From the NCBI GenBank assembly GCA_009692425.1, contig SHZF01000002.1, forward strand, positions 64,992 to 128,991: 64,000 nucleotides of DNA, read 5' to 3'. This DNA is from Myxococcales bacterium (lineage in GTDB: Bacteria; Myxococcota_A; UBA9042). Of the stretch, positions 3-16,097 are shown one piece after another. The notes beneath the pieces are model-generated. The model was not told the DNA's origin, made no database searches, and saw only the letters and a list, made by a program, of their open reading frames with translations. The translations under genes and the position numbers were made by a program. Numbering within the stretch: position 1 is the first letter of the stretch; each line of letters opens with the position of its first letter.

Positions 3-1166
3 TTCGTCGGCGCCGGCGTGACCCCGGTGACGCCCAGCGGCGGTGGGCCGGCGTGCGGCTCGCTGGTGTGCGACTACGTCGACGACGACTTCGTGTGCAC
101 GATGAAGGTGAAGTTCCCCGAAGCGCCCCAGGAACTGCAAGACCGCGTGCTGATTCGCGGCGCGCAGTTGCCGATGACCGACGAGACGAAGGCGTGGAAC
201 GTGCCACTGGGCGGCATCTGGTCGAACGTGATGCCGATCGACATCGACGCCGACGGCAAGATGGACGTTGTGGTGGGCGACGATTTCGGTGCCCACCGAC
301 TGCTCCACAACGTCGGCGGCAAGTTCACGGAATACCTGGCGGACATCGGCTTCCACAACTACGGCCATGCGATGGGCTGGAGCGTGGGCGACTTGAACGC
401 CGACGGCCTTGCCGACCTCGTCATGGCGGATGCGGGACCGAACCCCGTGTTCGTGCGCAAGGCCAAGGCCGACGCGGGCGTGCCGTTCACGTTCGTCGAC
501 GAGGGCGGCGCGCGCGGCGTGTGGGGGCCGACGTGGACGGCCAGCACGTGGTCGCCGCTGCTGGCCGACTTCGACCACGACGGCCGCGACGACCTGATGA
601 TGGGCGTGTCGATCGCGACGACGCTGGAGCAGTTCCCGTCCGCAGCGGCTGGATGTCTCGGCACGAAACAGAAGCCCTACGACGGTCACCCGAACCCGGA
701 CCTGCTTTTCCTGTCGAACGGCAGCGGTACGACGTTCAAGCCGCACAAGTTCCCGAACGGGCCGTATTCGCACTTTGCCATGGTGACGCAGGCCGTCATC
801 GACCTCGACGACGACGGTGACCTCGACCTCGTGCAGACGCGGCCCAACGTGAACATGACGGCGGGCGTGCGGATCATGCGCAACGACGTGCCGAAGCTGG
901 GCAAGTCGTTCGTCGTCAAGGTCACCGGCAAGGGCGGCAACCTCGACGCGCTCGGCACCGTCGTCAAGGCAACCATTGGGGGCGTCGTGCGCACGCGCTG
1001 GCTCAACGGCACGGGCGGTACGGGCGGCACGCGCAGCCGCATGGCTCACTTTGGCCTCGGCGGCGCGGAGAAGGCCACCGACGTCACGATTTTGTGGCCA
1101 GACGGCAAGCTGACGAAGCTCGGCGATGTCGCTGCGGGCCAGACCCAGGGGGCGACGTGGCCGTGA
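3..1166 (+). CDS. FG-GAP repeat / ASPIC-UnbV (CRTAC1-like) protein, 5'-truncated by window edge
   Basis: Frame is open from the window start (FVGAG matches DIFVGAG in the downstream paralog). DxDxDGxxD Ca-binding repeats (DIDADGKMD, DLNADGLAD, DFDHDGRDD, DLDDDGDLD); C-terminal GNLDALG...AHFGLG...ILWPDG ASPIC/UnbV signature. Confidence 0.85.
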   Translation, partial: FVGAGVTPVTPSGGGPACGSLVCDYVDDDFVCTMKVKFPEAPQELQDRVLIRGAQLPMTDETKAWNVPLGGIWSNVMPIDIDADGKMDVVVGDDFGAHRLLHNVGGKFTEYLADIGFHNYGHAMGWSVGDLNADGLADLVMADAGPNPVFVRKAKADAGVPFTFVDEGGARGVWGPTWTASTWSPLLADFDHDGRDDLMMGVSIATTLEQFPSAAAGCLGTKQKPYDGHPNPDLLFLSNGSGTTFKPHKFPNGPYSHFAMVTQAVIDLDDDGDLDLVQTRPNVNMTAGVRIMRNDVPKLGKSFVVKVTGKGGNLDALGTVVKATIGGVVRTRWLNGTGGTGGTRSRMAHFGLGGAEKATDVTILWPDGKLTKLGDVAAGQTQGATWP

Positions 1167-3268
1167 CCCGACCCCGTTCGCTTGCAGTGGCGCTCGTCGT
1201 CGCGTGGGCCGGCGCCGCCTGCACCACGGGGCCAGTCGCCGCGCCGGCCACGGAAACTTCGGCGCGGCTGTCCGACACGGCCGGGGGCGGTTCCACGTCC
1301 GACGGTGCCCCAGATGCGGTTGCCCCACTGGATGCGCCGCTGGACCTGGCGGACAACGACACACCCGTTGCCGTTGATTTCGACGCTGGCGCACCCCGGT
1401 CGGCGGACGCACTGGGCGACACCGAGCCGTTGGCGGACACGCCACCCGACGTGCCACCCACCGACTCCGTGATTGGCGACCCCACCGACAGCCAGACCGC
1501 CGAACTCGACGCTGCCGCCGACGCGCTCACTGACGACGCGGGCGATGCGGCCCCGTTCGACGCGATCGATGGCGTTGCGCTGGAGACTGCGAGCGCGCTC
1601 GACGCCCTCGACACCGGCCCCGCAGTCGATTCCGACGCTGTCCCGCTGCCCGATGCCGCCACGGCCGCCTGGGGCAAGCCGGTCATGCCGGCCGACCTGC
1701 CGCAAGCCGCCTTTGCCGATGTCACGCTCGCTTATGGCCTGACGCCTTCGGCAAGTGTGGCGCCGTGCGTGGCCGTCGCGGACTTCGACAACAACGGCCG
1801 CGAAGACTTCCTGATCGTGAAGTACAGCGGCCCCAAGGCGATCATCCACGCGGTGCTGCTCAGCGCCGCCGCGCCGGTGCATGTCGAGAGCCCCTTCGAC
1901 ACGGCCATCATCCAGCCCAACTTCGGCTGCTCGGTGGCCGACCTGAACGGGGACGCGAAGCCCGACCTGCTGGTCGGCGGCTACTCCGGTTCGGCGTTCT
2001 ACCTCGGCGACGGCGCTGGCGGCTTCGTCGACAAGAGCACCGAGTGGATGCCGTACATCACGGATTTCGCTGCCTTCAGCATCCAGCCCGCAGACCTCGA
2101 CGGCGACGGCGATCTCGACATTTTCGTCGGTGCCGGCTTCGACCCGCCAAGTTGCACGGCCTTGGACTGCAAGTTCACCGAGACCGACCTCGTGTGTATC
2201 GTCAATCCGCCGCCTCCCAATACGCCCAAGTTGCAGGATCGTGTGCTGATTCGCGGCCCCGGCCTGCCGTACGTCGACGAGACGCCGAAGTGGAACGTGC
2301 CCGGCGGCGGCACCCAGACCGTGGCGCTGGCGCTCGATGTGGACGACGACGGCAAGGTGGACCTGCTCGTGGGCGACGACTTCGGCGGCCACCGGTTGCT
2401 GCACAACAAAGGCGGTACCTTCGCGTCGTTTGCGACGGACATCGGATTCCACGCCTATGCCGGCGCGATGGGCTGGACGATCGGGGAGTTCGATGGCGAC
2501 GGACTGTTCGACGTCGTACTCGCAGAGTCCGGGCCCACGCCGCTCTACGTGCAAAAGGCACCTCAGGACGGAAAGCCATTTCAGGTCGAGGACAACGGCG
2601 GCGAGCTGGGCTCGTGGTGGCCGATGTGGGGCGCGAGCGCATGGGCTCCGCTGGCGGCCGATTTCGATCACGACGGCCAAGACGACCTCCAGTTGGGCGC
2701 GTCGGTGAATTTCTCTCCCGAAAAGGCGGCGGATTTCAAGGCGGTGTGCGGTTCGAGCAAGACGAATCCCAGCGCCAACCCGTTCGCCGGCGAGACGAGC
2801 ATCGACGTGTTGTTGCTGCGCAAGCCCGGCAAGGGGTTCACGCCGTTCGCGATGCCGGCCGGGCAGCACCCGCATGTCGTGATGCTGGAGCAGCGCCTGA
2901 TCGATCTCGATGCCGACGGAGACCTCGACATCGTGCAATCGCGGCCCGGGCCGTCGATGATGGCCTCGCGCAGCCGCATCTTGCGCAACGATTTGGTAAA
3001 ACAAGGGAAAAGTATCCAGATCGTCGTCAAGGGCAAGGGGCTCAACCAGGACGCCCTCGGCACAACGGTGACTGCGACGATCGGGGGCAAGACGCGCACG
3101 CGCTGGCTCAACGGCGGCAGTTGGGGTGCGACGCCGGCGCGGTTTGCCCACTTCGGCCTGGGGACCGACGCCAAGGCGACTGACGTGACGGTGCGCTGGC
3201 CCGACGGCTCGAAGACGCCGATCGGCGACGTGGTGGGCGGCGAGACGAAGGCGGCGACTTGGAAGTGA
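1163..3268 (+). CDS. Lipoprotein with Asp/Ala/Pro-rich linker, FG-GAP repeats and ASPIC-UnbV domain (tandem paralog of upstream gene)
   Basis: GTG start overlaps the upstream TGA (GTGA). Signal peptide ends WAGAAC; acidic low-complexity linker; multiple DxDxDGxxD motifs; NQDALG...AHFGLG...VRWPDG. Confidence 0.85.
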   Translation: MTRPRSLAVALVVAWAGAACTTGPVAAPATETSARLSDTAGGGSTSDGAPDAVAPLDAPLDLADNDTPVAVDFDAGAPRSADALGDTEPLADTPPDVPPTDSVIGDPTDSQTAELDAAADALTDDAGDAAPFDAIDGVALETASALDALDTGPAVDSDAVPLPDAATAAWGKPVMPADLPQAAFADVTLAYGLTPSASVAPCVAVADFDNNGREDFLIVKYSGPKAIIHAVLLSAAAPVHVESPFDTAIIQPNFGCSVADLNGDAKPDLLVGGYSGSAFYLGDGAGGFVDKSTEWMPYITDFAAFSIQPADLDGDGDLDIFVGAGFDPPSCTALDCKFTETDLVCIVNPPPPNTPKLQDRVLIRGPGLPYVDETPKWNVPGGGTQTVALALDVDDDGKVDLLVGDDFGGHRLLHNKGGTFASFATDIGFHAYAGAMGWTIGEFDGDGLFDVVLAESGPTPLYVQKAPQDGKPFQVEDNGGELGSWWPMWGASAWAPLAADFDHDGQDDLQLGASVNFSPEKAADFKAVCGSSKTNPSANPFAGETSIDVLLLRKPGKGFTPFAMPAGQHPHVVMLEQRLIDLDADGDLDIVQSRPGPSMMASRSRILRNDLVKQGKSIQIVVKGKGLNQDALGTTVTATIGGKTRTRWLNGGSWGATPARFAHFGLGTDAKATDVTVRWPDGSKTPIGDVVGGETKAATWK

Positions 3269-3910: not shown

Positions 3911-6130
3911 GTGCAAGAATTACCGAATCGACTGCCTTTCTGCGAGTTGGATCGTGAAAGTTATTCGGCACGGTCCCTTGTCGCTGGTTGGGTCGCCAAG
4001 TTCGCGGCTGAATCCAACTCATCGCGACGTGAAGGCGATCGACTTACTCTTGCACGCATCCTGATCGCGTTGCGTCCGGTGTCGCCGCGCGCCCGAGTCG
4101 GTGGCCTTGCCGTCGTTGCTGGCCTGCTGTCGGTCGCGTGGTTGTGGCTTCCGAACCGCGCGCCGGCAGAGCGCCTGCCCAGCCTGCGTGACGCCCCATT
4201 TGCAGCATGGGTGGCCGCGCTCCCTGCGGGCGGCGCCGCGTCGAGCCGTGGCGCGCCCCTTGTCCTGGGGCCAGTTGAAGCCGGCGTGCGCATTCAAGCC
4301 GGGGCCTGCCGATTCGAGGTACTGGCGGCCGAACGCGCCCCGTCCGATGCGCTGCGCAGTCGCAATTTCGCCATCACCGCCGACCCGACACGGCGTGTGG
4401 ACGCCGTGTGCGATCCGGTGCGCCGTGCTCTGGTGGCCGGGCTCCAAGCCTGGGACGTCGCGCTGCCAGGCATCCGCGCCGGTGGCGAAGTGCCGGCGCG
4501 ATCGGCCCTCGATGCGGCGCTGGTCACCCTTGCCGCCTTTCTCGACGGGGTTGTCGCTGTCTGCGGCGTGGCCCTCGTGTTCGGGTTGGGCGCCCCGCTC
4601 CGGACCCTGTTCGTCGTCGTCGCAGCGCTCGCGTTTGCCGCGCGGGCCGCGTGGCCTCACGCCCTGACGGCCGTGGGGTTCGGCTACGAATGGTTCGCCG
4701 ACGCGGCGTTCCTGCACAGCGTGCCGCGCTACGGTCCGGGCGCGCCGGCGCTGTGGGGCAAGTTGCTGGGCCCGCTGACCCATGACCACGGCGCCGTGCT
4801 GTGGTTGCACGCCGCGCTGGGGTCGATCGCGTGCGGCATCTGGGCGGCGTTCGTTGCGACGGCGCGCGGCTCGCTGCGGGCGGGCTGGCTCGCCGGCGGC
4901 GCGCTCGCCTTGACGCCCCTGTTCTTGCGCGAGCACACCAGCGAATCGATGCACACGGCGGTTGTCCTGGGCCTCGGCCTGGCGGCTCTGGCGCTGGCGC
5001 AGCCCAGACCTGCGCGCGGCGTTGCGGCGGCGGCGTTCGTCTGGGCCGTCGGCTGGCGCGTCGATGTGGGACCTGCCGCGGTCCTCACCCTGTCGGCTCT
5101 GCACTGGGCCCGGCGCGAGCACCGCCCGGGGTCCGAAGCGGCGCTGCCCGGTCGTCCTGGGTCGCCCGCACGGTGGCTGCTGCCGGCGCTGGCGGCGGGT
5201 GCCGGGTTGGTCGCGCTGGCCGTCTTCGCGCAAGGCCGCCTTGCCGCTGACCTCCACCAAGGTAACCTCCCGCAACTGCAAAGCTATCTCTCAGGACTTG
5301 GCTCGCGCCTGGCGGGCGAGGCGTTGCCGTGGCGGGCTGACTGGTTTCCCGTCGGGGTGTGGCTCGCCGTGCTGCTCGCGATCGCGCAAGTGCCCGGTCG
5401 CGCGCCGTGGCGCTGGCTGGCCGTCGCCGCAAGCGGGCTGCCGTGGCTGCTGCTGTCGTGGCTGGACTTCAACGAAACGTCGCTGCCCCGGCTGCAGGCG
5501 CCGGCGGCGTGGCTGGCGGTCGTCGCGGCGGCGGGCCTGGCGGATCTCGCGCTGGAGAACGTGTCGCGCCCGCGTGTCGCCGCGACGGTGCTGGTCTTCG
5601 GCTTTGCGTCGAGCGCCGTTCTGACCTTGCCGCAAGTCCTGCGCCGCACGAACAGCCACCTCGAAGACGACCTGCTGCGCGAGGCGATCGCCGCCCTGCC
5701 GAACGAGCGTCCGTTCGTACTCGCGACACGCACCTACGCCGAAGGCCCGGCGATCGGCCTGCACCTGCACCAGCCGACGTACGCGCTGCAGCCGCCGGCA
5801 CTGCCGGGCACCGTCGTCACCGCGACCGCCATGCTCGAGGCCCTGCGTGCGGGAACGCTCCCGCACGGCGAGTTGTGGTTCCTGCGCAGTCTGCGTTGCT
5901 ACCTCGGTCCCGTCGGCTCGCCCGCCGCGGGCCGGGAGCATCCGGCGTGTGCGGCGCTGGCGGCATGGCCGGGAGCGGTGGCCGCGTTCGAGCGTGACGT
6001 GCCGAATCGGGGGGAGTCGCCGACGTTCGACGGCTACGGCAAGGCCCGCACGCTGCGCGTCGGCCTGTACCGCTTGCCGGAGACGCTCAATCGAACAGGA
6101 TCAGCCGCGGCAGTTTTGGCGCCGCCTTGA
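3911..6130 (+). CDS. Multi-pass membrane protein, possibly GT-C-like; start codon uncertain
   Basis: About 10 or more hydrophobic segments followed by a soluble C-terminal domain; no diagnostic motif recognised. Confidence 0.55.
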   Translation: MQELPNRLPFCELDRESYSARSLVAGWVAKFAAESNSSRREGDRLTLARILIALRPVSPRARVGGLAVVAGLLSVAWLWLPNRAPAERLPSLRDAPFAAWVAALPAGGAASSRGAPLVLGPVEAGVRIQAGACRFEVLAAERAPSDALRSRNFAITADPTRRVDAVCDPVRRALVAGLQAWDVALPGIRAGGEVPARSALDAALVTLAAFLDGVVAVCGVALVFGLGAPLRTLFVVVAALAFAARAAWPHALTAVGFGYEWFADAAFLHSVPRYGPGAPALWGKLLGPLTHDHGAVLWLHAALGSIACGIWAAFVATARGSLRAGWLAGGALALTPLFLREHTSESMHTAVVLGLGLAALALAQPRPARGVAAAAFVWAVGWRVDVGPAAVLTLSALHWARREHRPGSEAALPGRPGSPARWLLPALAAGAGLVALAVFAQGRLAADLHQGNLPQLQSYLSGLGSRLAGEALPWRADWFPVGVWLAVLLAIAQVPGRAPWRWLAVAASGLPWLLLSWLDFNETSLPRLQAPAAWLAVVAAAGLADLALENVSRPRVAATVLVFGFASSAVLTLPQVLRRTNSHLEDDLLREAIAALPNERPFVLATRTYAEGPAIGLHLHQPTYALQPPALPGTVVTATAMLEALRAGTLPHGELWFLRSLRCYLGPVGSPAAGREHPACAALAAWPGAVAAFERDVPNRGESPTFDGYGKARTLRVGLYRLPETLNRTGSAAAVLAPP

Positions 6131-8288
6131 CCGCGACCTCGAACTTGCGCAGTTCCTCGTCGAACATCGCCTGCACCCGCGTCTTGCGTTCGTCTTCGTC
6201 GAGCAGGATCGCATCGCGCAGCAGGTCCTTCTCCTGGCGGTCGCGCCCCTCGTCGAATTGCTGGCGCAGCGCGAACTGTTGGCCCAGTCGCTCTTCGCGG
6301 ATTCGCACGAAGACGGCGCGCACGCTGTAGCCGACCTCGCCGGTGCCGAACAGGATGTACATGAACGCGTTGACGACCGGCGTGCCCGAGTCGAGCAGTC
6401 CGATCACCACCTCGTCGACGGCCAACTCGAGCGCGACGTAGGCGATGGCGTTGGCGACAGCGACCGCGTTGGAAATCTCAACGATCGAATCCTGGCCGTC
6501 GTCGACCACCTTCACCTCGACCGGCGAGCTGAAATGCGACGGATCGTGGGTCAAGTTGACATGCAGAAACACGAATTTGACGTTCTTGCCCGTGTGGTGG
6601 TGGATGCGCCGCGCCTCACACTTCCTGCGCGCCTCGGGCGTCGGACTGCGCAGCGGAATGAGGACGACATAGTCGGCCTTCTTCAACTCGTTCCAACTGC
6701 GCTCGGAGCCACGGCTGTCGAATTCGATGCCGGCGACGCGCAATTCCGAGGCGCGCCGCCAGCGGCTCCACACACTCGCCACGACGACGGTGAGGATGAA
6801 CAGCGCGGCGATCTTGAAGCCATCCGGGCGCTCCGCTGAGTTCACGACCAGCACGTACACGAACACGACGAGGATGATGCGAAAGGCCCACGTCAGCAGT
6901 GCGGACGCCTTTTCGGCGAGCAGCACGGCGAACGTGTCCATCGTCATCAGCACGAGCACGCCGGTCGCATAGGCGCCGCCCTGGGCCTCGACGTCGGCCT
7001 CGAACCGCCAGTTCACCAGCAGGCAGATGCCGGTGAGCACGAGCACGAGCGGGCGGCGATACTCGATCCACCTCGGGCTCATGCCGAAGCGCGGCAGGTA
7101 GCGCGGCAGGATGTTGAGCAGGCCCGCCATCGCGCTGGCGCCGGCGAACCACAGGATGAGCAGCGTGTTGATGTCGTAGACCGTGCCGAACACGGGTCCG
7201 AGCAGCGTGTGGGCCAGGTACGACAACGCGCGCCCCGCGGCCAGGCCACCGGGAGCGAATTCCTTCAGCGGAACGAGCGTGGCCGTGACGATCGAACTGC
7301 CGACGAGGCCGAGGCTCATGATGATCGCGGCGGCGACCAGCATCTTGCGGGTGTTGCTCACACGCTCGGCGTCGTTGGCCGCCTTGACGTGCATCATGAC
7401 CGATACGCCGGTCTCAAAGCCCGACAGGCCGAGCGCGAGTTTGGGGAACACGAGCAGGCTGACCGCGGCCAGCATCCACGGTCCGCCACCGCCGAGGCCC
7501 CCCAGCGGACCGTGCTGCCCGCCCGGCTCGATCTGGTGGAGTTCGCTCAGCAGGTGCGCCGTGTCGAAGGCCTGGATCTTGGCCCACCACGCCGCGACCA
7601 GTTCGGGGTGCGCCTGCAGTTCGCGCAGGCCCGTGCCGATGATCACGGCGTTCAGCGCCATGTAGGGCACCGCGATGGCGATGGCGATGCCGATCGCTTC
7701 CTTGAACCCTTTGAGGAACACGGCTCCCAGAGCCAGGATCAGCACGGCCGTCAGCGTGACCGGGCCGAATGGCAGGTGCCCGGCAAAAATCGGGTTCGCC
7801 AGCACGTGGTGCGTCGCGTCGGCCGACGACAACGTGATCGTGATCACGAAATCGGTCATCGCGAACCCGAGCAGCACCAGCACGAGCGTCTTGCCGAGCC
7901 AGCCGAGCCGGCCCCAGCCGGTGGTCAGGCGCTCCGTCATCTTGAGCGAGCCCTCGCCGTGCGGCACGTGCTTGGCGACCATCGCGTAGACGGGCACGGC
8001 GGCGAAGAACGTGACGGCCACGAGGATCAGCGTCGCGATCGGGGCCACCGAGCCCGCCGCCATCACCGCGAGGCCCGGCGCATAGCCGAGTGAGCTGAAG
8101 TAGTCGACACCCGTCAGCCACAGGGTCGCGTACCACGGGGCGGCGTGCGGTGCAGCGGTCGCCGGGGGCTTGGCGCGCTTGTGCCCCGCGTCTAGGGTCG
8201 CCTCTCCTCCGGCAGGCGCAGGCCCAGCGGGCTGGCCGTCGCGCATCCAGTCGTGGATGCGCGCTCCAAAGGCAAGGGGCAGGGCCAT
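6087..8288 (-). CDS. APC-superfamily transporter, KimA/YdaO-like (probable K+ importer) with cytoplasmic C-terminal domain
   Basis: About 12 TM segments. DYFSSLGY resembles KimA DALSSVAY, TDFVITITLS resembles DYILTVAVS, LSGFET resembles LTGVEA, AYATGV resembles LYAVGV (KimA motifs recalled from memory). Confidence 0.75.
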   Translation of the reverse strand: MALPLAFGARIHDWMRDGQPAGPAPAGGEATLDAGHKRAKPPATAAPHAAPWYATLWLTGVDYFSSLGYAPGLAVMAAGSVAPIATLILVAVTFFAAVPVYAMVAKHVPHGEGSLKMTERLTTGWGRLGWLGKTLVLVLLGFAMTDFVITITLSSADATHHVLANPIFAGHLPFGPVTLTAVLILALGAVFLKGFKEAIGIAIAIAVPYMALNAVIIGTGLRELQAHPELVAAWWAKIQAFDTAHLLSELHQIEPGGQHGPLGGLGGGGPWMLAAVSLLVFPKLALGLSGFETGVSVMMHVKAANDAERVSNTRKMLVAAAIIMSLGLVGSSIVTATLVPLKEFAPGGLAAGRALSYLAHTLLGPVFGTVYDINTLLILWFAGASAMAGLLNILPRYLPRFGMSPRWIEYRRPLVLVLTGICLLVNWRFEADVEAQGGAYATGVLVLMTMDTFAVLLAEKASALLTWAFRIILVVFVYVLVVNSAERPDGFKIAALFILTVVVASVWSRWRRASELRVAGIEFDSRGSERSWNELKKADYVVLIPLRSPTPEARRKCEARRIHHHTGKNVKFVFLHVNLTHDPSHFSSPVEVKVVDDGQDSIVEISNAVAVANAIAYVALELAVDEVVIGLLDSGTPVVNAFMYILFGTGEVGYSVRAVFVRIREERLGQQFALRQQFDEGRDRQEKDLLRDAILLDEDERKTRVQAMFDEELRKFEVAVKAAPKLPRLILFD

Positions 8289-8291
8289 CGC

Positions 8292-8579
8292 CTAGTCCGC
8301 AGCGAAACCGGCGGTGGCCGCGTCGGGGCGGGCTGCGCTGGCGGCGACTTGGCGCTCGAAGCCCGCCTGCTGCTCACGGAACAAGGCTTCGGCGCGGGCG
8401 CGCCGTTCGGCCGGGTCGAGGTGGACGGCCGCGCGCAGTAACGCTTGCTCGCGCTGGCGGCGTTCCGCGGAAAACCTACGCAGGCTGATGCGCTGGCAGT
8501 CGAGCAGGCCGTCGTGATGGCCCGAGAGCCAGCCCGTGACCGCCCGGAGCGCGCGCCCCGCACGAGAATCGAAGGACAT
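8292..8579 (-). CDS. Small helical protein (95 aa) homologous to the C-terminal tail of the downstream transporter
   Basis: ATG with GGAGG about 12 nt upstream; stop codon 3 nt before the transporter ATG; 19 of 45 ungapped identities to the transporter tail by manual alignment. Confidence 0.7.
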   Translation of the reverse strand: MSFDSRAGRALRAVTGWLSGHHDGLLDCQRISLRRFSAERRQREQALLRAAVHLDPAERRARAEALFREQQAGFERQVAASAARPDAATAGFAAD

Positions 8580-8599
8580 GGTGGGAACGAACCTCCACG

Positions 8600-8760
8600 G
8601 TTTGCCGGTGGGCGCGCGCTTGCGGCCCAGGCGCGGTGAACGGCACCGAGCCCCTTGCTGTGGCCCTGCCTCGGTGATCGACACCGAGCGATGTGGCCCC
8701 GGCTCCCCGCTCCCTGGACGGGATTGGGCGGCTCCGGCCCCTGCGACGGGGTCGAAGCGG
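8600..8760 (-). promoter_or_regulatory. c-di-AMP (ydaO/yuaA) riboswitch-like structured leader, degenerate or variant
   Basis: Minus strand reads CGCCCAAUCCC-GUCCA-GGGAGCGGGGAGCC GGGGCCACAUC, then hairpin CUCGGUG/CACCGAG, GCAGGG ... CCGCAAGCG. This parallels the order of ydaO motifs, and the element lies upstream of a KimA-like gene. Confidence 0.4.
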
Positions 8761-8765
8761 CACGG

Positions 8766-8771
8766 ATTCTA
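8766..8771 (-). promoter_or_regulatory. Putative -10 element (TAGAAT) for the small ORF-transporter operon
   Basis: TANNNT hexamer immediately 5' of the structured leader. Confidence 0.35.
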
Positions 8772-8896
8772 CGCCGGTCCGGTCCCGGCGCAATGGGCAT
8801 TGCGAGGGGCAGGGTTGCAGGACCTCTGCCCAGCCGCCGCCCGCTCGCGTATACTGCCGCCCCCGCCGGCCCGGCGCCTGACCACGTGCCCTCACC

Positions 8897-10489
<1,593 letters not shown>

Positions 10490-11546: not shown

Positions 11547-13592
11547 TCAATGTAGCACGGACGCTTGTTTCGGCACGGGGGGCTCCGCAGGTCCAGGCGC
11601 CCAGCCCGGCGCCGCTGGCGGGGCGGCTTCGGGCTCGGGCAGCCGCAACAGCCGCGGCATGTCGACCAGGCCGCGCGGAGCATGGCGCAAGGGCATCGGC
11701 GCCAGCATCCCCGGCGGCCGCTCTTCCGGCTGCGACGGGTCGGCGGCGCGGGCAGGGTCCGACGCGAACGGGTGGGCCGCCTCCAGGCACCGCAATGCAT
11801 CGAGCAGACCGGGACTGGGTGCTGCCGTGGCGTTGTCCACGGGTCCGAGCGGCGTCAGGCCCAGCTTTGCCCACAGGCACCGCTCCGCGTGCGGCACCGT
11901 CGCAAGCTCCGCAGCTGTCAGCGGCGGCGGCGGCGGCCACGGCGTCGGGTTTGGCACGCGGTACACCTGCCAACGCCCGCGTGCGTAGACGACAGGAAGC
12001 GCGCGCAGCTCCCCAGCGAAGGGTGGTGGCGCCGCAAACGGGTCGTGCCACGTGGCGATGTAGTCGTAGAAGCGGCCATGCTCCTCGAACGAAAACGTGC
12101 CGTGGTCGTCGCCGAGCGGCTGCGGGCGTGCGGCCCGGCTCCGCAGGCGCAGCGGCTGCAACATCGGGTCGGCAAAGGCCTGCGGCACATAGCCGCTCCC
12201 CGCCACATCCCACCACTCGCCGAGGTTGGTAAACGTCGGTTGCCGCAACCAGGCGCTGCCCGCCTGTCCGTGCAGTGTCAGAACGCTGGAACCATTGGGA
12301 ATCGAACGAAAGGCGTCGCGCATCCGGTCGTACTCGGCGCTCCCCAACGTCACGGCTTGCAGCGCGAGGATCGGCACGCCGGCGGCCACGACGCCGAACG
12401 CGATCGTTCCCGCCCAGGTGCGCTTGCGGGCCTGGGGCGGCGGCGCCAACACGCGCAACGGCAGGGCGCACACACCCACGATCGCGATCGCCTCAACCAA
12501 CCGCACGTTGACGTTGAAAAGCCACAGCGGCCGCAGCACCTGGCGCGGCAGCACGAAGTAGAGGACGGCCAACCCTGCCGTCGCGATCCCGAGGTAGCGG
12601 GCGCCGAGGTTATCCGCCGTATCATGGGGTTCTGACGCGTCGGCCAGTTCTAGTTCCGCCGCCTCGCGCTGGCCCTGCCGCACCGTGCCGAGCACCCACA
12701 GCGCCAGCGCGCCGAGCCAGACCGCACTGAGCATATCGCCCGGCCGCCGCAGCCACAGGTCGGCCATCGCCTCAAGGTGCTTGGGATGCGGCTGGAACTG
12801 GTCGAACATCCGGTCCACGGCCGCGCGCAACGCCGTCAGCGGCAACTGCGCTTCGACCGCGAACGCGTCGCGCCACTGGGAGCCAAAAGACGCGATGTCG
12901 ACCGAGCGCTGCGCCCACGGCAGCAGCAGTGCCACGGACGGCGCAATGCACGCGACCTCGCGCATCGGCCACAGGAGCGCCCGACTCCAGTGGCTGCGCG
13001 CTCCGAACACCGCCGCGAGCCCCGGCAGCAGCACCAGGCCGGCCAGCCAGAACGCGTAGTGCGTGACCGCCAGCAGGGACACGAGCACGGACACAACGAC
13101 GGCCTTCCACAGCGCCGGCGCACGCACCAGACTCAGGTGCGCCGCGAGCATTGCGATGAACAGCGGCAGGGCGAGCGCGACGTGGAAGTAGCCCCACATC
13201 ACGTCGGCGTTCCACATCCACGGCAGCACCGCGAGGACGAGCCACCGGCTGTGCCGGGCCTGGCGCAGCAACACGATCGCCGCCAACGGCAGCGCGGCCA
13301 ACGACAGAGCAATCACCGCCCGCGCGGCACCCTCGACCCCGAGCAGCGGCGCCAGCAGACCGACGAGGCGGTACCACAAGAAGTACGGCGTCGGCACGCC
13401 AAGGCGCTCGAAGGCGGCGGCATAGGCGGGCGTCGCGTCCCAGCGCTGCAGGATCGCTGCCACGCGCAGGTGCTGGCCCGCGTCGAGGAATGGCAGCACA
13501 TCGACCGTCGCCAGCGGGACAAGCGCCAGCGCCACGAACGCCGCGACGAGGCCCCAGAAGGCGAGGTGATAGCGGTCGGTGGGGGCCTGCAT
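11547..13592 (-). CDS. Multi-pass membrane protein, GT-C-like (putative glycosyltransferase)
   Basis: First TM followed by the LPFLDAGQH loop with an acidic residue; about 10 TM segments; soluble C-terminal domain; Pro-rich tail. Confidence 0.55.
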   Translation of the reverse strand: MQAPTDRYHLAFWGLVAAFVALALVPLATVDVLPFLDAGQHLRVAAILQRWDATPAYAAAFERLGVPTPYFLWYRLVGLLAPLLGVEGAARAVIALSLAALPLAAIVLLRQARHSRWLVLAVLPWMWNADVMWGYFHVALALPLFIAMLAAHLSLVRAPALWKAVVVSVLVSLLAVTHYAFWLAGLVLLPGLAAVFGARSHWSRALLWPMREVACIAPSVALLLPWAQRSVDIASFGSQWRDAFAVEAQLPLTALRAAVDRMFDQFQPHPKHLEAMADLWLRRPGDMLSAVWLGALALWVLGTVRQGQREAAELELADASEPHDTADNLGARYLGIATAGLAVLYFVLPRQVLRPLWLFNVNVRLVEAIAIVGVCALPLRVLAPPPQARKRTWAGTIAFGVVAAGVPILALQAVTLGSAEYDRMRDAFRSIPNGSSVLTLHGQAGSAWLRQPTFTNLGEWWDVAGSGYVPQAFADPMLQPLRLRSRAARPQPLGDDHGTFSFEEHGRFYDYIATWHDPFAAPPPFAGELRALPVVYARGRWQVYRVPNPTPWPPPPPLTAAELATVPHAERCLWAKLGLTPLGPVDNATAAPSPGLLDALRCLEAAHPFASDPARAADPSQPEERPPGMLAPMPLRHAPRGLVDMPRLLRLPEPEAAPPAAPGWAPGPAEPPVPKQASVLH

Positions 13593-13688
13593 CGCGTCCG
13601 GGCGGCCGGCAAGCTGCCGACGCGCGGGCCGAGTGTACGGTGGCGGCCGTGCGGGCTCCAGTGCCCTGGGCACTCACTCTCGGTGCCG

Positions 13689-14333
13689 TCAGGGCAGGGT
13701 GTCCGCCGTCGAGGGTCCCGCCAGCGCCGCCAGCGCATCCGCACCGTGCCGACCGAGCGACAGTTCGACCTCGATCCGAAACACCTCGTGGCGCGGGGCA
13801 GGCCGGCCGGCTGTCGGCCGCTGGCAGTCGGCGCCGCCGAGTTCGCCCACGCTCTCTGCATCCCACTGCAATTCACCCTCTGAGCGCAACAGCGGGAACG
13901 TCGCACAATCGAACGGCTTCAGTCCCGGCCACCCCAGCCCCAGCCGCTCGCTCGCCACCTGCAGCGCACAGCGCCAGTCGGCCATCAGCAGCACACAGCG
14001 CGGGGCGTTGGCCAACTCGGGCCGATCGATAAGTGCGGTCGGGATGCCCACGCCCGCCGGAAAGTCTGGATGTTCCCACGTCTCGTCGCCGAACCACTGG
14101 TCGGGATCCGTGCAACCGGGCTGCAAGAGCGGGATCACGTCAGCCGCGTGCGCCAGAATGCGCTGGGCCTGGTGGACATCGACCCAGATGCCGTTCGAGC
14201 AACACGCGGCGTGGCACTCGTCGATGCGGCAGCGCTCGCCCCGGGCCGGGTCGAACAGGGCCGGATCGACGCGCACGGTCTCGGCGCGGCGGCCCTGGAT
14301 GGCGTGGGCGTCGAGCCGCGAGAGTTCACTCAT
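13689..14333 (-). CDS. DUF3109/YkgJ-like cysteine-cluster protein
   Basis: CxxxxCxxxCC...RCVLL...CALQ...LKPFDCATFPL pattern; GGAG upstream of ATG. Confidence 0.75.
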   Translation of the reverse strand: MSELSRLDAHAIQGRRAETVRVDPALFDPARGERCRIDECHAACCSNGIWVDVHQAQRILAHAADVIPLLQPGCTDPDQWFGDETWEHPDFPAGVGIPTALIDRPELANAPRCVLLMADWRCALQVASERLGLGWPGLKPFDCATFPLLRSEGELQWDAESVGELGGADCQRPTAGRPAPRHEVFRIEVELSLGRHGADALAALAGPSTADTLP

Positions 14334-14507
14334 CGTTCAGTCTCCTATGGCGAGGCAGCGTACGGTCGGGCTCGCGCAGGCGCAAGATGGCCCCTGTGTC
14401 TCCTGCACAGCGCGACCGCACGTGCGGCACCGGACCGATTTTGGACTCGACACATCCACCCCCGCCTCCTACACTCCCGCGCCCCAACCACCGCCAGGAG
14501 CCCGCCC

Positions 14508-16097
14508 ATGACCGCCAGTCAACACGGCCTCGACCACCACGGCCTGCAACCCTCGGGCCGCGTCCACTGGAACGAAGACGGGCCGACCTTGCTGGAGCAC
14601 GCCATCCGCCGCAGCGAAGGGCGGCTTACGGCCCACGGCGCGTTCGTGGCGTTGACAGCTCCGCGCACCGGCCGCTCGCCCAACGACAAGTTCGTCGTGC
14701 AAGAGCCTGGCAGCCAAGACCGCATCTGGTGGGGCAAATTCAACCGGCCGACCACGCCTGCGGTGTTCGCGGCGATGCTCGGCAAGGTGCAGGCCTACCT
14801 GTCGGAGCGTCCGGAGCTTTTCGTGCAGGACCTTCACGTCGGCGCCGACCCCGCCGCCCAGATGCCGCTGCGCGTCGTGACCGAGAACGCGTGGCACGCT
14901 GCGTTTGCGCGCAACATGTTCATCCGGCCGGCGGCCGACCGTCTTGCAGGCCATGTGCCTGAATTCACGGTGCTCCACACCCCGCACCTGCAGGCTGCCG
15001 GCAAGGCCGACGGCGTGAATTCGGAAGCGTTCGCGCTCCTCGATTTCGACCGCAAGCTGATCCTGATCGGTGGCACGAAGTACGCCGGCGAAGTGAAGAA
15101 GTCGATCTTCACGGTGATGAACTACCTGTGCCCGCTCCAGGGAATCCTGCCGATGCACTGCTCGTCCAACGTGAAAGGCGACAACACCGCGATCTTCTTC
15201 GGCCTGTCGGGCACCGGCAAGACGACGCTGTCGGCGGACCCGAGCCGCGGCCTCATCGGCGACGACGAGCACGGCTGGGGCGACAGCGGCGTGTTCAACT
15301 TCGAGGGCGGTTGCTACGCCAAGATGATCAACCTGTCGCCTGAGGCCGAGCCGGACATCTTCGCGACCTCCCGGCGGTTCGGCACCATCCTCGAAAACGT
15401 GAAGTTGGACGACCAGCGGGTGCCGGACTTCTACGATTCGAGCATCGCGGAGAACAGTCGCGGATCATATCCAGTTGATTTCATTGCCAACAACGTGCCG
15501 TCAGGGCGCGGTGGCCACCCGCAGAACGTCATCTTCCTGACCGCCGACGCGTTCGGCGTCCTGCCGCCGGTGGCGCGCCTGACGCCCGATCAGGCCGCGT
15601 ACCACTTCATCAGCGGCTATACGGCGAAGGTGGCGGGCACCGAGGTCGGCGTGACGGAGCCGCAGCCGAACTTCTCAGCGTGCTTCGGCGGGCCGTTCAT
15701 GCCGATGCATCCTTCGGTATACGCCGAGCTGCTGATGAAGAAGATGACGCAGCACGGCAGCCAGGCGTGGCTCATCTCGACGGGCTGGACCGGCGGGCCG
15801 TACGGCGTCGGCAAGCGGATGTCGATCCAGCACACGCGCACGCTGCTCAACGCGGTGCTCGACGGCTCGCTCGCCAACGTGGTGTTCCGCAAGGACCCAC
15901 GCTTTGGCTTCGAGGTGCCAACGGCGTGCCCGGGCGTGCCCGCCGAAGTGCTCGACGCGCGCGCGACGTGGACCGACAAGGACGCCTACGACCGCTGCGC
16001 CGACAAGTTGGCCCGCATGTTCGGCGAGAACTTCCAGCAGTTTGCCGGGGGCTGCTCGGATGCCGTCAACAGCGCGGCCCCGCAGGCCGTCGGATGA
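14508..16097 (+). CDS. pckA: Phosphoenolpyruvate carboxykinase (ATP)
   Basis: TGRSPNDKF, YAGEVKKSIF, FFGLSGTGKTTLSAD, IGDDEHGW, FNFEGGCYAK, FLTADAFGVLPP; AGGAG RBS. Confidence 0.97.
   Translation: MTASQHGLDHHGLQPSGRVHWNEDGPTLLEHAIRRSEGRLTAHGAFVALTAPRTGRSPNDKFVVQEPGSQDRIWWGKFNRPTTPAVFAAMLGKVQAYLSERPELFVQDLHVGADPAAQMPLRVVTENAWHAAFARNMFIRPAADRLAGHVPEFTVLHTPHLQAAGKADGVNSEAFALLDFDRKLILIGGTKYAGEVKKSIFTVMNYLCPLQGILPMHCSSNVKGDNTAIFFGLSGTGKTTLSADPSRGLIGDDEHGWGDSGVFNFEGGCYAKMINLSPEAEPDIFATSRRFGTILENVKLDDQRVPDFYDSSIAENSRGSYPVDFIANNVPSGRGGHPQNVIFLTADAFGVLPPVARLTPDQAAYHFISGYTAKVAGTEVGVTEPQPNFSACFGGPFMPMHPSVYAELLMKKMTQHGSQAWLISTGWTGGPYGVGKRMSIQHTRTLLNAVLDGSLANVVFRKDPRFGFEVPTACPGVPAEVLDARATWTDKDAYDRCADKLARMFGENFQQFAGGCSDAVNSAAPQAVG

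Follow-up and report, generated by a model that had tools for sequence, protein, structure and literature searches.

A possible relic of a c-di-AMP riboswitch, rearranged and probably degenerate, in the leader of a KimA-like transporter operon of Myxococcota

Riboswitches of the ydaO class (Rfam family RF00379), which respond to cyclic di-AMP (c-di-AMP), typically occupy the leaders of K+ or osmolyte transport genes in genomes that make this messenger. Passages of a review (PMC7288161) place Bacillus subtilis KimA and KtrAB under negative control in the c-di-AMP riboswitch system, and a table of the same review gives A9, G23-G26 and A45 as the ligand contacts of one solved ydaO structure. Rare variants of a parent class are outlined for flavin mononucleotide (FMN; PMC6298564) and guanine-class (PMC9295807) riboswitches, and at the level of titles and abstracts we found no report of a c-di-AMP riboswitch variant class or of c-di-AMP riboswitches in Myxococcota. 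Here we describe a leader of about 180 nucleotides (nt; approximately 8765-8580, minus strand) that precedes a two-gene operon with a KimA-like transporter in a Myxococcales bacterium (assembly GCA_009692425.1, contig SHZF01000002.1); the whole stretch of 64,000 nt that was analysed, with a G+C content of 69%, is called the window. An earlier note had taken this leader for a variant ydaO-like riboswitch, either decayed or altered in ligand specificity. In our assessment there is about an even chance that the leader is a rearranged, probably degenerate, non-canonical descendant of a c-di-AMP (ydaO-class) riboswitch.

The motifs that the earlier note listed are all present on the minus strand where it had put them, and the 5' half does look like the first three paired elements of the riboswitch with their junctions (P1-J-P2-J-P3). 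The counterpart of the 5' strand of the three-way junction reads CGCC-CAAU-CCC/GGG-AG-CGGGGAGCC and is one G short, with four G's where canonical CGGGGGA.CC has five. By eye, the AAU and AG-CGGGG blocks flank the P2 hairpin with no base to spare. Colinear local alignments connect this half (8701-8730) to the canonical switches L119, L112 and L122 of the same taxonomic class. Next comes GGGGCCACAUC, with one extra base at the P5/P6 junction; no P4 hairpin precedes it, as had been suspected, and P4 is missing from the leader. A 7-bp hairpin begins one base past this block and is followed by GCAGGGCC, a P7-like start; the canonical second junction runs GGGG-(N)NAUC, P6 hairpin, (U)A, P7 hairpin GGGN...NCCC, GAN, CCC. 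Local alignments to L122, L111 and L123, also canonical and of the same class, begin at the P1 5' strand and stay colinear as far as a candidate 3' core at 8617-8589, where the match to ..GAGCCCG.CAGCUAACC.CG.AGG.. is free of gaps. The best counterpart of the canonical 3' core, itself degraded, is therefore not the poorly matched stretch considered in the earlier note but lies further 3', reaching past the boundary then drawn at 8600.

The 7-bp stem and the stretch previously compared with the 3' core are in fact the two copies of one internal direct repeat of 31 nt (81% identity; 8689-8659 and 8651-8621, 38 nt from start to start), which a repeat search recovered and Tandem Repeats Finder did not report. 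Because the candidate second junction lies within this duplicated region, it is ambiguous which copy would form P6/P7 and the 3' strand of P5; the Vienna fold and a covariance model of canonical switches (R2, below) pair the region differently. In the 3' core, the stretch CAGCUAAC, invariant in 11 aligned acidobacterial members and found by script in all 27 canonical members, reads CGGCAAAC, with two bases changed. With this core P3 would pair at four of its six positions and P1 would have three pairs, one of them G-U, where the canonical long-range helices comprise 6 bp (P3) and 3-4 bp (P1). Position matrices derived from canonical members alone give the core, in its best leader placement, -12.5 bits, compared with +43 to +49 in those members. 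Constraining the fold to the ydaO-like arrangement costs 17.2 kcal/mol relative to the minimum free energy; the cost is 8.7 for L112 and 5.1 for L122. Furthermore, canonical members of the class show, by reading, a pseudoknot between the P7 loop and the 3' tail (CUUCUCG with CGAGGAG-type pairs), and the same kind of reading reveals no partner 3' of 8589 for either candidate P7 loop. The internal repeat, the score of the 3' core, the cost of the threaded fold and the lack of any RF00379 match in the genome are signs of degeneration. Between the two options of the earlier note, "decayed" is the better fit and altered ligand specificity the poorer one, because the departures consist of a missing P4, a duplication, weak P1 and P3 helices and a 3' core at -12.5 bits, not of a few changes in the pocket.

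We infer a history in which the leader retained the blocks of the riboswitch in their order (the P1 5' strand, AAU, P2, AG and the G-run; then GGGGC..AUC with its hairpin and AGGG; then the 3' core) while P4 was lost, 31 nt were duplicated, P1 and P3 were weakened and several invariant junction bases were altered. The canonical two-site c-di-AMP pocket would then most likely no longer form. GGAGG, the Shine-Dalgarno sequence of the first gene, sits where canonical members carry the 3' strands of P3 and P1, so the last bases of the 3' core may now serve for ribosome binding, and the leader would today be a structured 5' untranslated region (UTR). Any residual control would probably consist in hiding GGAGG in the P3/P1-like 3' strand and so turning translation off.

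The gene context fits such a descent well. The second gene of the operon encodes a 733-amino-acid (aa) protein that matches no Pfam, NCBIfam or PDB entry by sequence, and none of the K+ transporter families, AA_permease_2/KimA included. It belongs to a very large family: all 8000 scored candidates matched at E<=0.001, and among the 120 listed there is no Pfam entry and no name other than "hypothetical protein". Members occur in Myxococcota, Acidobacteriota, Streptomyces, Chloroflexia and cyanobacteria. Profile comparison by hhalign with riboswitch-controlled KimA-like proteins of the same class is positive (93%, E 3e-7, 187 N-terminal columns). In addition, the AlphaFold2 model (pLDDT 83.6, pTM 0.78), whose cytosolic C-terminal domain comes with a helical tail specific to the clade, retrieves B. 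subtilis KimA (8b70, 8b71 and 6s3k) at Foldseek ranks 1-3 (E 2e-12 to 6e-11, about 640 columns), followed by cation-chloride cotransporters and ApcT. The protein thus appears KimA-like by fold, which would suggest a role in K+ transport. The earlier label of a K+ transporter operon would thus follow from the fold, no K+ transporter family being matched at the sequence level.

Canonical RF00379 switches lie on the same strand at 11 of 80 homologous loci, all in Acidobacteriota. Six of them are directly upstream of the homologue (L006, L010, L015, L039, L048 and L058), one is 2.2 kb upstream (L040), and four lie immediately behind it, in front of the following gene (L023, L075, L078 and L080). 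These last four loci are of Pyrinomonadaceae type; with the switch (at about 4500-4700) placed directly after the KimA-like homologue, it is the following gene that comes under its control. Since a switch adjoins the gene at 11 of the 80 loci, the 733-aa family is a candidate for an unrecognised family of K+ (or cation) importers in the c-di-AMP regulon. The genome also encodes one diadenylate cyclase, of CdaA type (CdaA_N and DAC domains), a gene that the earlier note had proposed to look for. The typical setting of the riboswitch is therefore found here, with a KimA-like fold, switches at homologues and a cyclase.

In the taxonomic class of the window, 16 of 107 genomes have a canonical RF00379, each a single one (L111-L126, 63-89 bits with the Rfam model), and within the window's own family it is confined to one genus, where all six genomes have it. 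Behind the switch, the first open reading frame (ORF) with 80 codons or more reads as KimA-like at 11 of these 16 loci and as Kup-like at two (L115 and L123), and looks unrelated at L113, L122 and L126; Pfam, run on two of the loci, assigned AA_permease_2 at L117 and K_trans at L115. A KimA-like AA_permease_2 protein that is switch-controlled in a sister genus has no match in the genome studied here at E<=1e-5.

The leaders of the same gene in relatives take several forms. Whole-genome searches of 107 class and 401 phylum genomes yielded no relative above 65% protein identity, and the transporters of the nearest genomes are 62-65% identical. Their leaders cannot be aligned to this one; the sequences ahead of the same gene in the nearest genomes available are different. 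As a single query against genome and metagenome contigs the 733-aa protein located no relative; the matches listed from an alignment-based genome scan were mostly from distant phyla, and a back-translated pattern identified three loci on metagenome contigs. In most relatives the leader is short, about 85 nt, and its first hairpin is conserved. At L089-L093, L095, L097, L003, L082, L083 and L094, the leader (about 85-100 nt before the start codon) opens, immediately past a TACAAT/TAGAAT box, with a hairpin CUCCGC-loop-GCGGAG, whose stem varies between loci with matching changes on both sides and is followed by a conserved GGACCGCC...GGCGGAACGAAG. The loci scanned among these (L082, L083 and L003) contain no match to a known RNA family in the short leader. 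The leader at L085, a locus with the same prfC synteny, is only about 40 nt long.

Two genomes of a sister genus have a long leader of about 220-245 nt (L084:3727-3973 and L100:1758-1978, both minus strand), which BLAST detects in 2 of the 107 class genomes. Identity between the two versions of this leader is 81%, compared with 59% for fourfold sites in the adjacent gene, and its first hairpin contains two pairs with compensatory changes, with one internal hairpin region variable. Of its first 27 nt, 24 are identical to P1-P2 of a canonical switch in another genus of the family, and the rest differs; L084, the one of the two that was scanned, has no Rfam match at E<=1. The pattern of substitution points to a candidate regulatory RNA under purifying selection. 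A homology between this long leader and that of the window, suspected by eye, was abandoned, as pairwise comparison gave z below 1 and BLAST no match in the window's genome. Thus the lineage has several non-canonical leaders for this gene, at least one of them constrained.

Several results weigh against descent from a riboswitch. The leader fails every formal test for the c-di-AMP riboswitch family. At the Rfam gathering thresholds (38 bits for the RF00379 covariance model) no family is found in the whole window, and RF00379 has no match at E<=10 in positions 8400-9000 (601 nt), in the 191-nt leader alone or across the whole genome (4.94 Mb, 96% complete), the same model that finds the 16 members of the class. 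Model R1, built from six canonical acidobacterial switches, picks up canonical high-G+C members at 53-73 bits and with filters off gives the leader at most 2 bits. Model R2, built from 23 canonical switches of Acidobacteriota and the window's own class, returns with filters off two leader matches on the right strand and in the right order (8732-8679, the 5' half, 7.2 bits; 8678-8587, 7.0 bits), which are noise because control loci give 29 matches of 7.7-13.6 bits in 32.8 kb. No covariance model, be it that of Rfam, R1 or R2, thus scores above noise, an outcome that the earlier note had itself named beforehand as speaking against ydaO membership. With canonical profiles, nhmmer does not place the leader among 171 and 291 genome matches at E<=1000, and it finds nothing on the leader alone or on versions with one repeat copy removed. 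The ungapped chain of position matrices leaves the leader outside the top 12 of the genome, and the minimum-free-energy fold is not unusually stable (z -1.48). The best pairwise z-scores against canonical members, 3.3-3.5, were equalled in 1 of 200 shuffles. Five leaders from this gene family that served as controls score 1.7-3.0 against some canonical member, and a z of 3.5 is marginal because controls reach about 3. We therefore set aside both the pairwise z-scores and the partial R2 matches as evidence, similar values being found in unrelated leaders and coding DNA. Finally, the leader is a single example, and R1 detects no canonical switch at 22 loci (that of the window plus 21 homologous ones from elsewhere in the phylum), so that an ancestral switch at this gene in the lineage has to be presumed.

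These failures speak for a chance resemblance, in which an ordinary G+C-rich 5' UTR happens to contain hairpins and short ydaO-like words with no link to c-di-AMP. We regard this as the most serious alternative, though a rather unlikely one. Every model-based search is at noise level, control leaders reach z 2-3, the motif is missing from the differing leaders that this gene has in the same family, and BLAST with the long L084 leader does not match this genome. The position matrices allow the coincidence to be estimated. Per position, the four leader blocks rank at about 4e-4 to 1.5e-3 in these matrices. The scores are 7.2 bits for block 0, 1.2 for block 1 and 3.8 for block 2 (GGGGCCACAUC); of 9.9 million positions, about 13,000-15,000 do as well as either of the first two, or roughly 1 in 700. 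From these counts about six equally good chains are expected per genome by chance, in keeping with coincidence. The same number translates into about 2e-4 for one pre-named leader of 300 nt, and the chain occurs, correctly oriented, in the single leader for which the context would predict ydaO. Moreover, judged by eye, the P2 and P6-like hairpins are placed exactly as in the riboswitch class. Pattern searches of the genome (9.89 Mb with both strands counted) give 12 sites for a relaxed 5'-half pattern and 2149 for GGGGC.{1,3}A[TG][CT]; the first followed by the second within 60 nt is found at one site, this leader, a uniqueness that argues against coincidence but has to be discounted to the extent that the relaxed pattern was loosened after the leader had been seen. 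The 3' core with up to four mismatches in 19 specified positions occurs at 39 sites, one of which is downstream of this unique site. Taken together, the resemblance exceeds chance only partly.

In an alternative scenario, which we consider improbable and behind coincidence, the leader would be a working atypical c-di-AMP switch, in which binding closes P3/P1 over GGAGG and shuts off translation of the small first ORF and, through coupling, of the KimA-like importer, in the manner of canonical switches at K+ uptake genes. The gene context and the cyclase are as such a switch would have them, and the Shine-Dalgarno sequence falls within its candidate 3' strand. To judge from reading, the leader retains the junction bases AAU, AG and AUC, which match contacts A9, G23-G26 and A45 at the level of motifs. 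Such a switch would also be the only known RNA route in this genome from c-di-AMP to K+ uptake, which lacks a canonical switch at E<=10 as well as any match at E<=1e-5 to the KimA-like query. The structure speaks against it: two bases of the invariant CAGCUAAC are altered, the G-run is short by one base, P3 is paired at four of six positions, P1 has three pairs including a G-U, the pseudoknot partner of the P7 loop is not visible by reading, the interior is duplicated, and the threaded fold lies 17 kcal/mol above the minimum free energy.

More speculative, and in our estimate highly improbable, is the proposal that this leader and that of L084/L100 together form a Myxococcota offshoot of the ydaO fold, which would have lost the canonical CAGCUAA junction, would no longer read c-di-AMP in the canonical way and would sense another signal to gate a Pfam-less KimA-like transporter. 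If true, the scaffold of the c-di-AMP riboswitch would thereby gain its first natural variant class. Least probable of all is that the present leader is a ydaO-derived aptamer retuned to another ligand, a nucleotide messenger or an ion-related signal: its altered positions do include junction bases invariant in all 27 canonical members compared, and a second ydaO-like non-canonical leader (L084, L100) is under purifying selection in a sister genus, so that non-canonical forms can be functional here, but the leader is a single example with no detectable similarity to that one (z below 1, BLAST), invisible to models and structurally disrupted, unlike variants that keep the parent fold.

The features of the locus are collected in table 1. 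The promoter assignment, made from the TTGCGC and TAGAAT boxes, is likely; the pair was not among the matches of a consensus promoter scan, and relatives' leaders of the same gene carry TAGAAT, TACAAT, TAAGAT or TAACAT at the place equivalent to the -10 box. The hairpin after the presumed transcription start lies outside the ydaO-like module, and its 17-nt core CUUCGACCCCGUCGCAG has, by eye, the length and closing bases of the first hairpin of relatives, for example CUCCGCGACCCGCGGAG at L089. The leader is nearly unchanged in two DNA runs of one study, which may be its source; two runs of another study do not cover it, and no RNA run with this DNA was listed. A plus-strand A>G at 8762 (U>C in the 5' hairpin of the leader) was seen on one contig at a depth of about 6, in one of the two runs with the leader.

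Table 1. Features of the leader, its operon and the divergent neighbour (window coordinates)
Feature	Position	Strand	Basis
prfC (release factor 3), divergent neighbour bounding the intergenic region	8897..10489	+	GTP_EFTU and RF3_C domains
Candidate sigma-70-type promoter: TTGCGC 8793-8788, spacer 16 nt, TAGAAT 8771-8766	8766..8793	-	Read from sequence
5' hairpin right after the presumed transcription start	8733..8766	-	Minimum-free-energy fold
CGCCCAAUCCC-GUCCA-GGGAGCGGGGAGCC	8730-8701	-	Read from sequence
ydaO-like 5' half: P1 5' strand CGCC, CAAU, P2 hairpin CCC-GUCCA-GGG, AG, CGGGGAGCC	8701..8730	-	Reading and local alignments
GGGGCCACAUC, counterpart of canonical GGGGC(G/U)NAUC (P5 5' strand and junction)	8690..8700	-	Reading, alignment, position matrix
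Direct repeat copy 1, with the 7-bp hairpin (8688-8670) and GCAGGGCC (P7-like start)	8659..8689	-	Repeat search
Perfect 7-bp stem CUCGGUG/CACCGAG, P6-like hairpin	8688-8682 with 8676-8670	-	Sequence; also in minimum-free-energy fold
GCAGGG	8669-8664	-	Read from sequence
Direct repeat copy 2, with the 5-bp hairpin CGGUG-CCGUU-CACCG and CCUGGGCCGCA	8621..8651	-	Repeat search and fold
CUCGGUGCCGUUCACC	8650-8635	-	Read from sequence
CCGCAAGCG	8626-8618	-	Read from sequence
Degraded 3' core candidate GCGCGCCCACCGGCAAACCGUGGAGGUUC, against canonical ..GAGCCCG.CAGCUAACC.CG.AGGC..	8589..8617	-	Ungapped part of local alignments
Shine-Dalgarno GGAGG	8596-8592	-	Inside the 3' core candidate
AUG start of the first gene	8579	-	Read from sequence
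First gene, 95-aa ORF	8292..8579	-	Residues 29-85 resemble the transporter C-terminal tail
Second gene, 733-aa KimA-like APC-fold membrane transporter	6087..8288	-	Fold and profile comparison

A spacer of 317 nt separates the operon from prfC. The 95-aa ORF is a real first gene and its AUG the real start, on three grounds: its residues 29-85 are similar to residues 670-727 of the 733-aa protein (E 2e-8), its G+C content by codon position is coding-like (0.78/0.57/0.83), and a protein of another organism (P0122, 100 aa) is 68% identical to it, with the same first 14 and last 6 residues and an in-frame gap of five residues. The sister organism with P0122 also encodes a transporter (P0001, 728 aa) 89% identical to the 733-aa protein. 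The second gene starts 3 nt past the stop codon of this ORF. The product of the ORF resembles a free-standing C-terminal helical tail of the transporter minus the final LPRLILFD strand; it could be left over from a partial duplication or act as a small partner protein of the transporter. Its N-terminus is weakly similar to the transporter N-terminus (E 0.085 in a small set), so that an origin as an internally deleted paralogue would be speculative. Elsewhere in the window, 18-1166 and 1094-3268 (both plus strand) encode two paralogous secreted-looking proteins with a long C-terminal region in common (...HRLLHN.GG.F...DFDHDG.DD...RTRWLNG...HFGLG...), in which we presume FG-GAP/ASPIC-type repeats.

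If the leader does descend from a ydaO riboswitch, it would illustrate a rarely documented stage, in which an aptamer is dismantled by duplication, deletion and point changes and its 3' end is retained for ribosome binding ahead of a small first gene that is new. Beyond this leader, a very large transporter family without a Pfam entry appears KimA-like and adjoins c-di-AMP riboswitches in Acidobacteriota, which would place it in their regulon. In the Myxococcota branch the canonical switch would have been replaced by several other conserved leaders, at least one of them under purifying selection and without an Rfam family. The leaders of the relatives, more than this single sequence, are thus the place to seek new regulatory RNA.

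Compared with the c-di-AMP riboswitch (RF00379), the leader has the same kind of position, since the operon behind it includes a KimA-like transporter and the genome encodes a diadenylate cyclase, and the same order of blocks from the P1 5' strand to AGGG, with a C-rich 3' core near the ribosome-binding site. It differs in matching the family model at none of the thresholds tried, in lacking P4, in a G-run short by one, a P5/P6 junction one base longer and a 31-nt repeat, in four mismatches among 19 positions of the 3' core (two of them in CAGCUAAC), and in its P3 (four of six), its P1 (three pairs), the lack of a visible pseudoknot partner and a costly threaded fold. The canonical switches of the taxonomic class (L111-L126), which precede KimA-like (AA_permease_2) or Kup genes, are closest in several respects, being of high G+C content, from the same phylogenetic neighbourhood and ahead of the same kind of controlled gene; the best alignments of the leader are to three of them (L119, L122 and L111). 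They score 53-89 bits where the leader has at most 7, and by reading they pair the P7 loop with the 3' tail over a GAGGAG-type ribosome-binding site, a pairing absent here. Rare riboswitch variants generally keep the parent fold and turn up as weak members of the parent model. The FMN and guanine-class variants resemble the present case in the idea that changes to the pocket bases may let a known aptamer scaffold respond to a different signal, and would differ in keeping the parent architecture, unlike this single leader, which has no comparative support. As for the transporter, the 733-aa protein is only 13-14% identical to B. subtilis KimA, has no Pfam match to AA_permease_2 and ends in an additional helical tail, some 50 residues long, that only the Myxococcota clade has, whereas its model has both the APC-fold membrane domain and the cytosolic C-terminal domain of the KimA structures (6s3k, 8b70 and 8b71).

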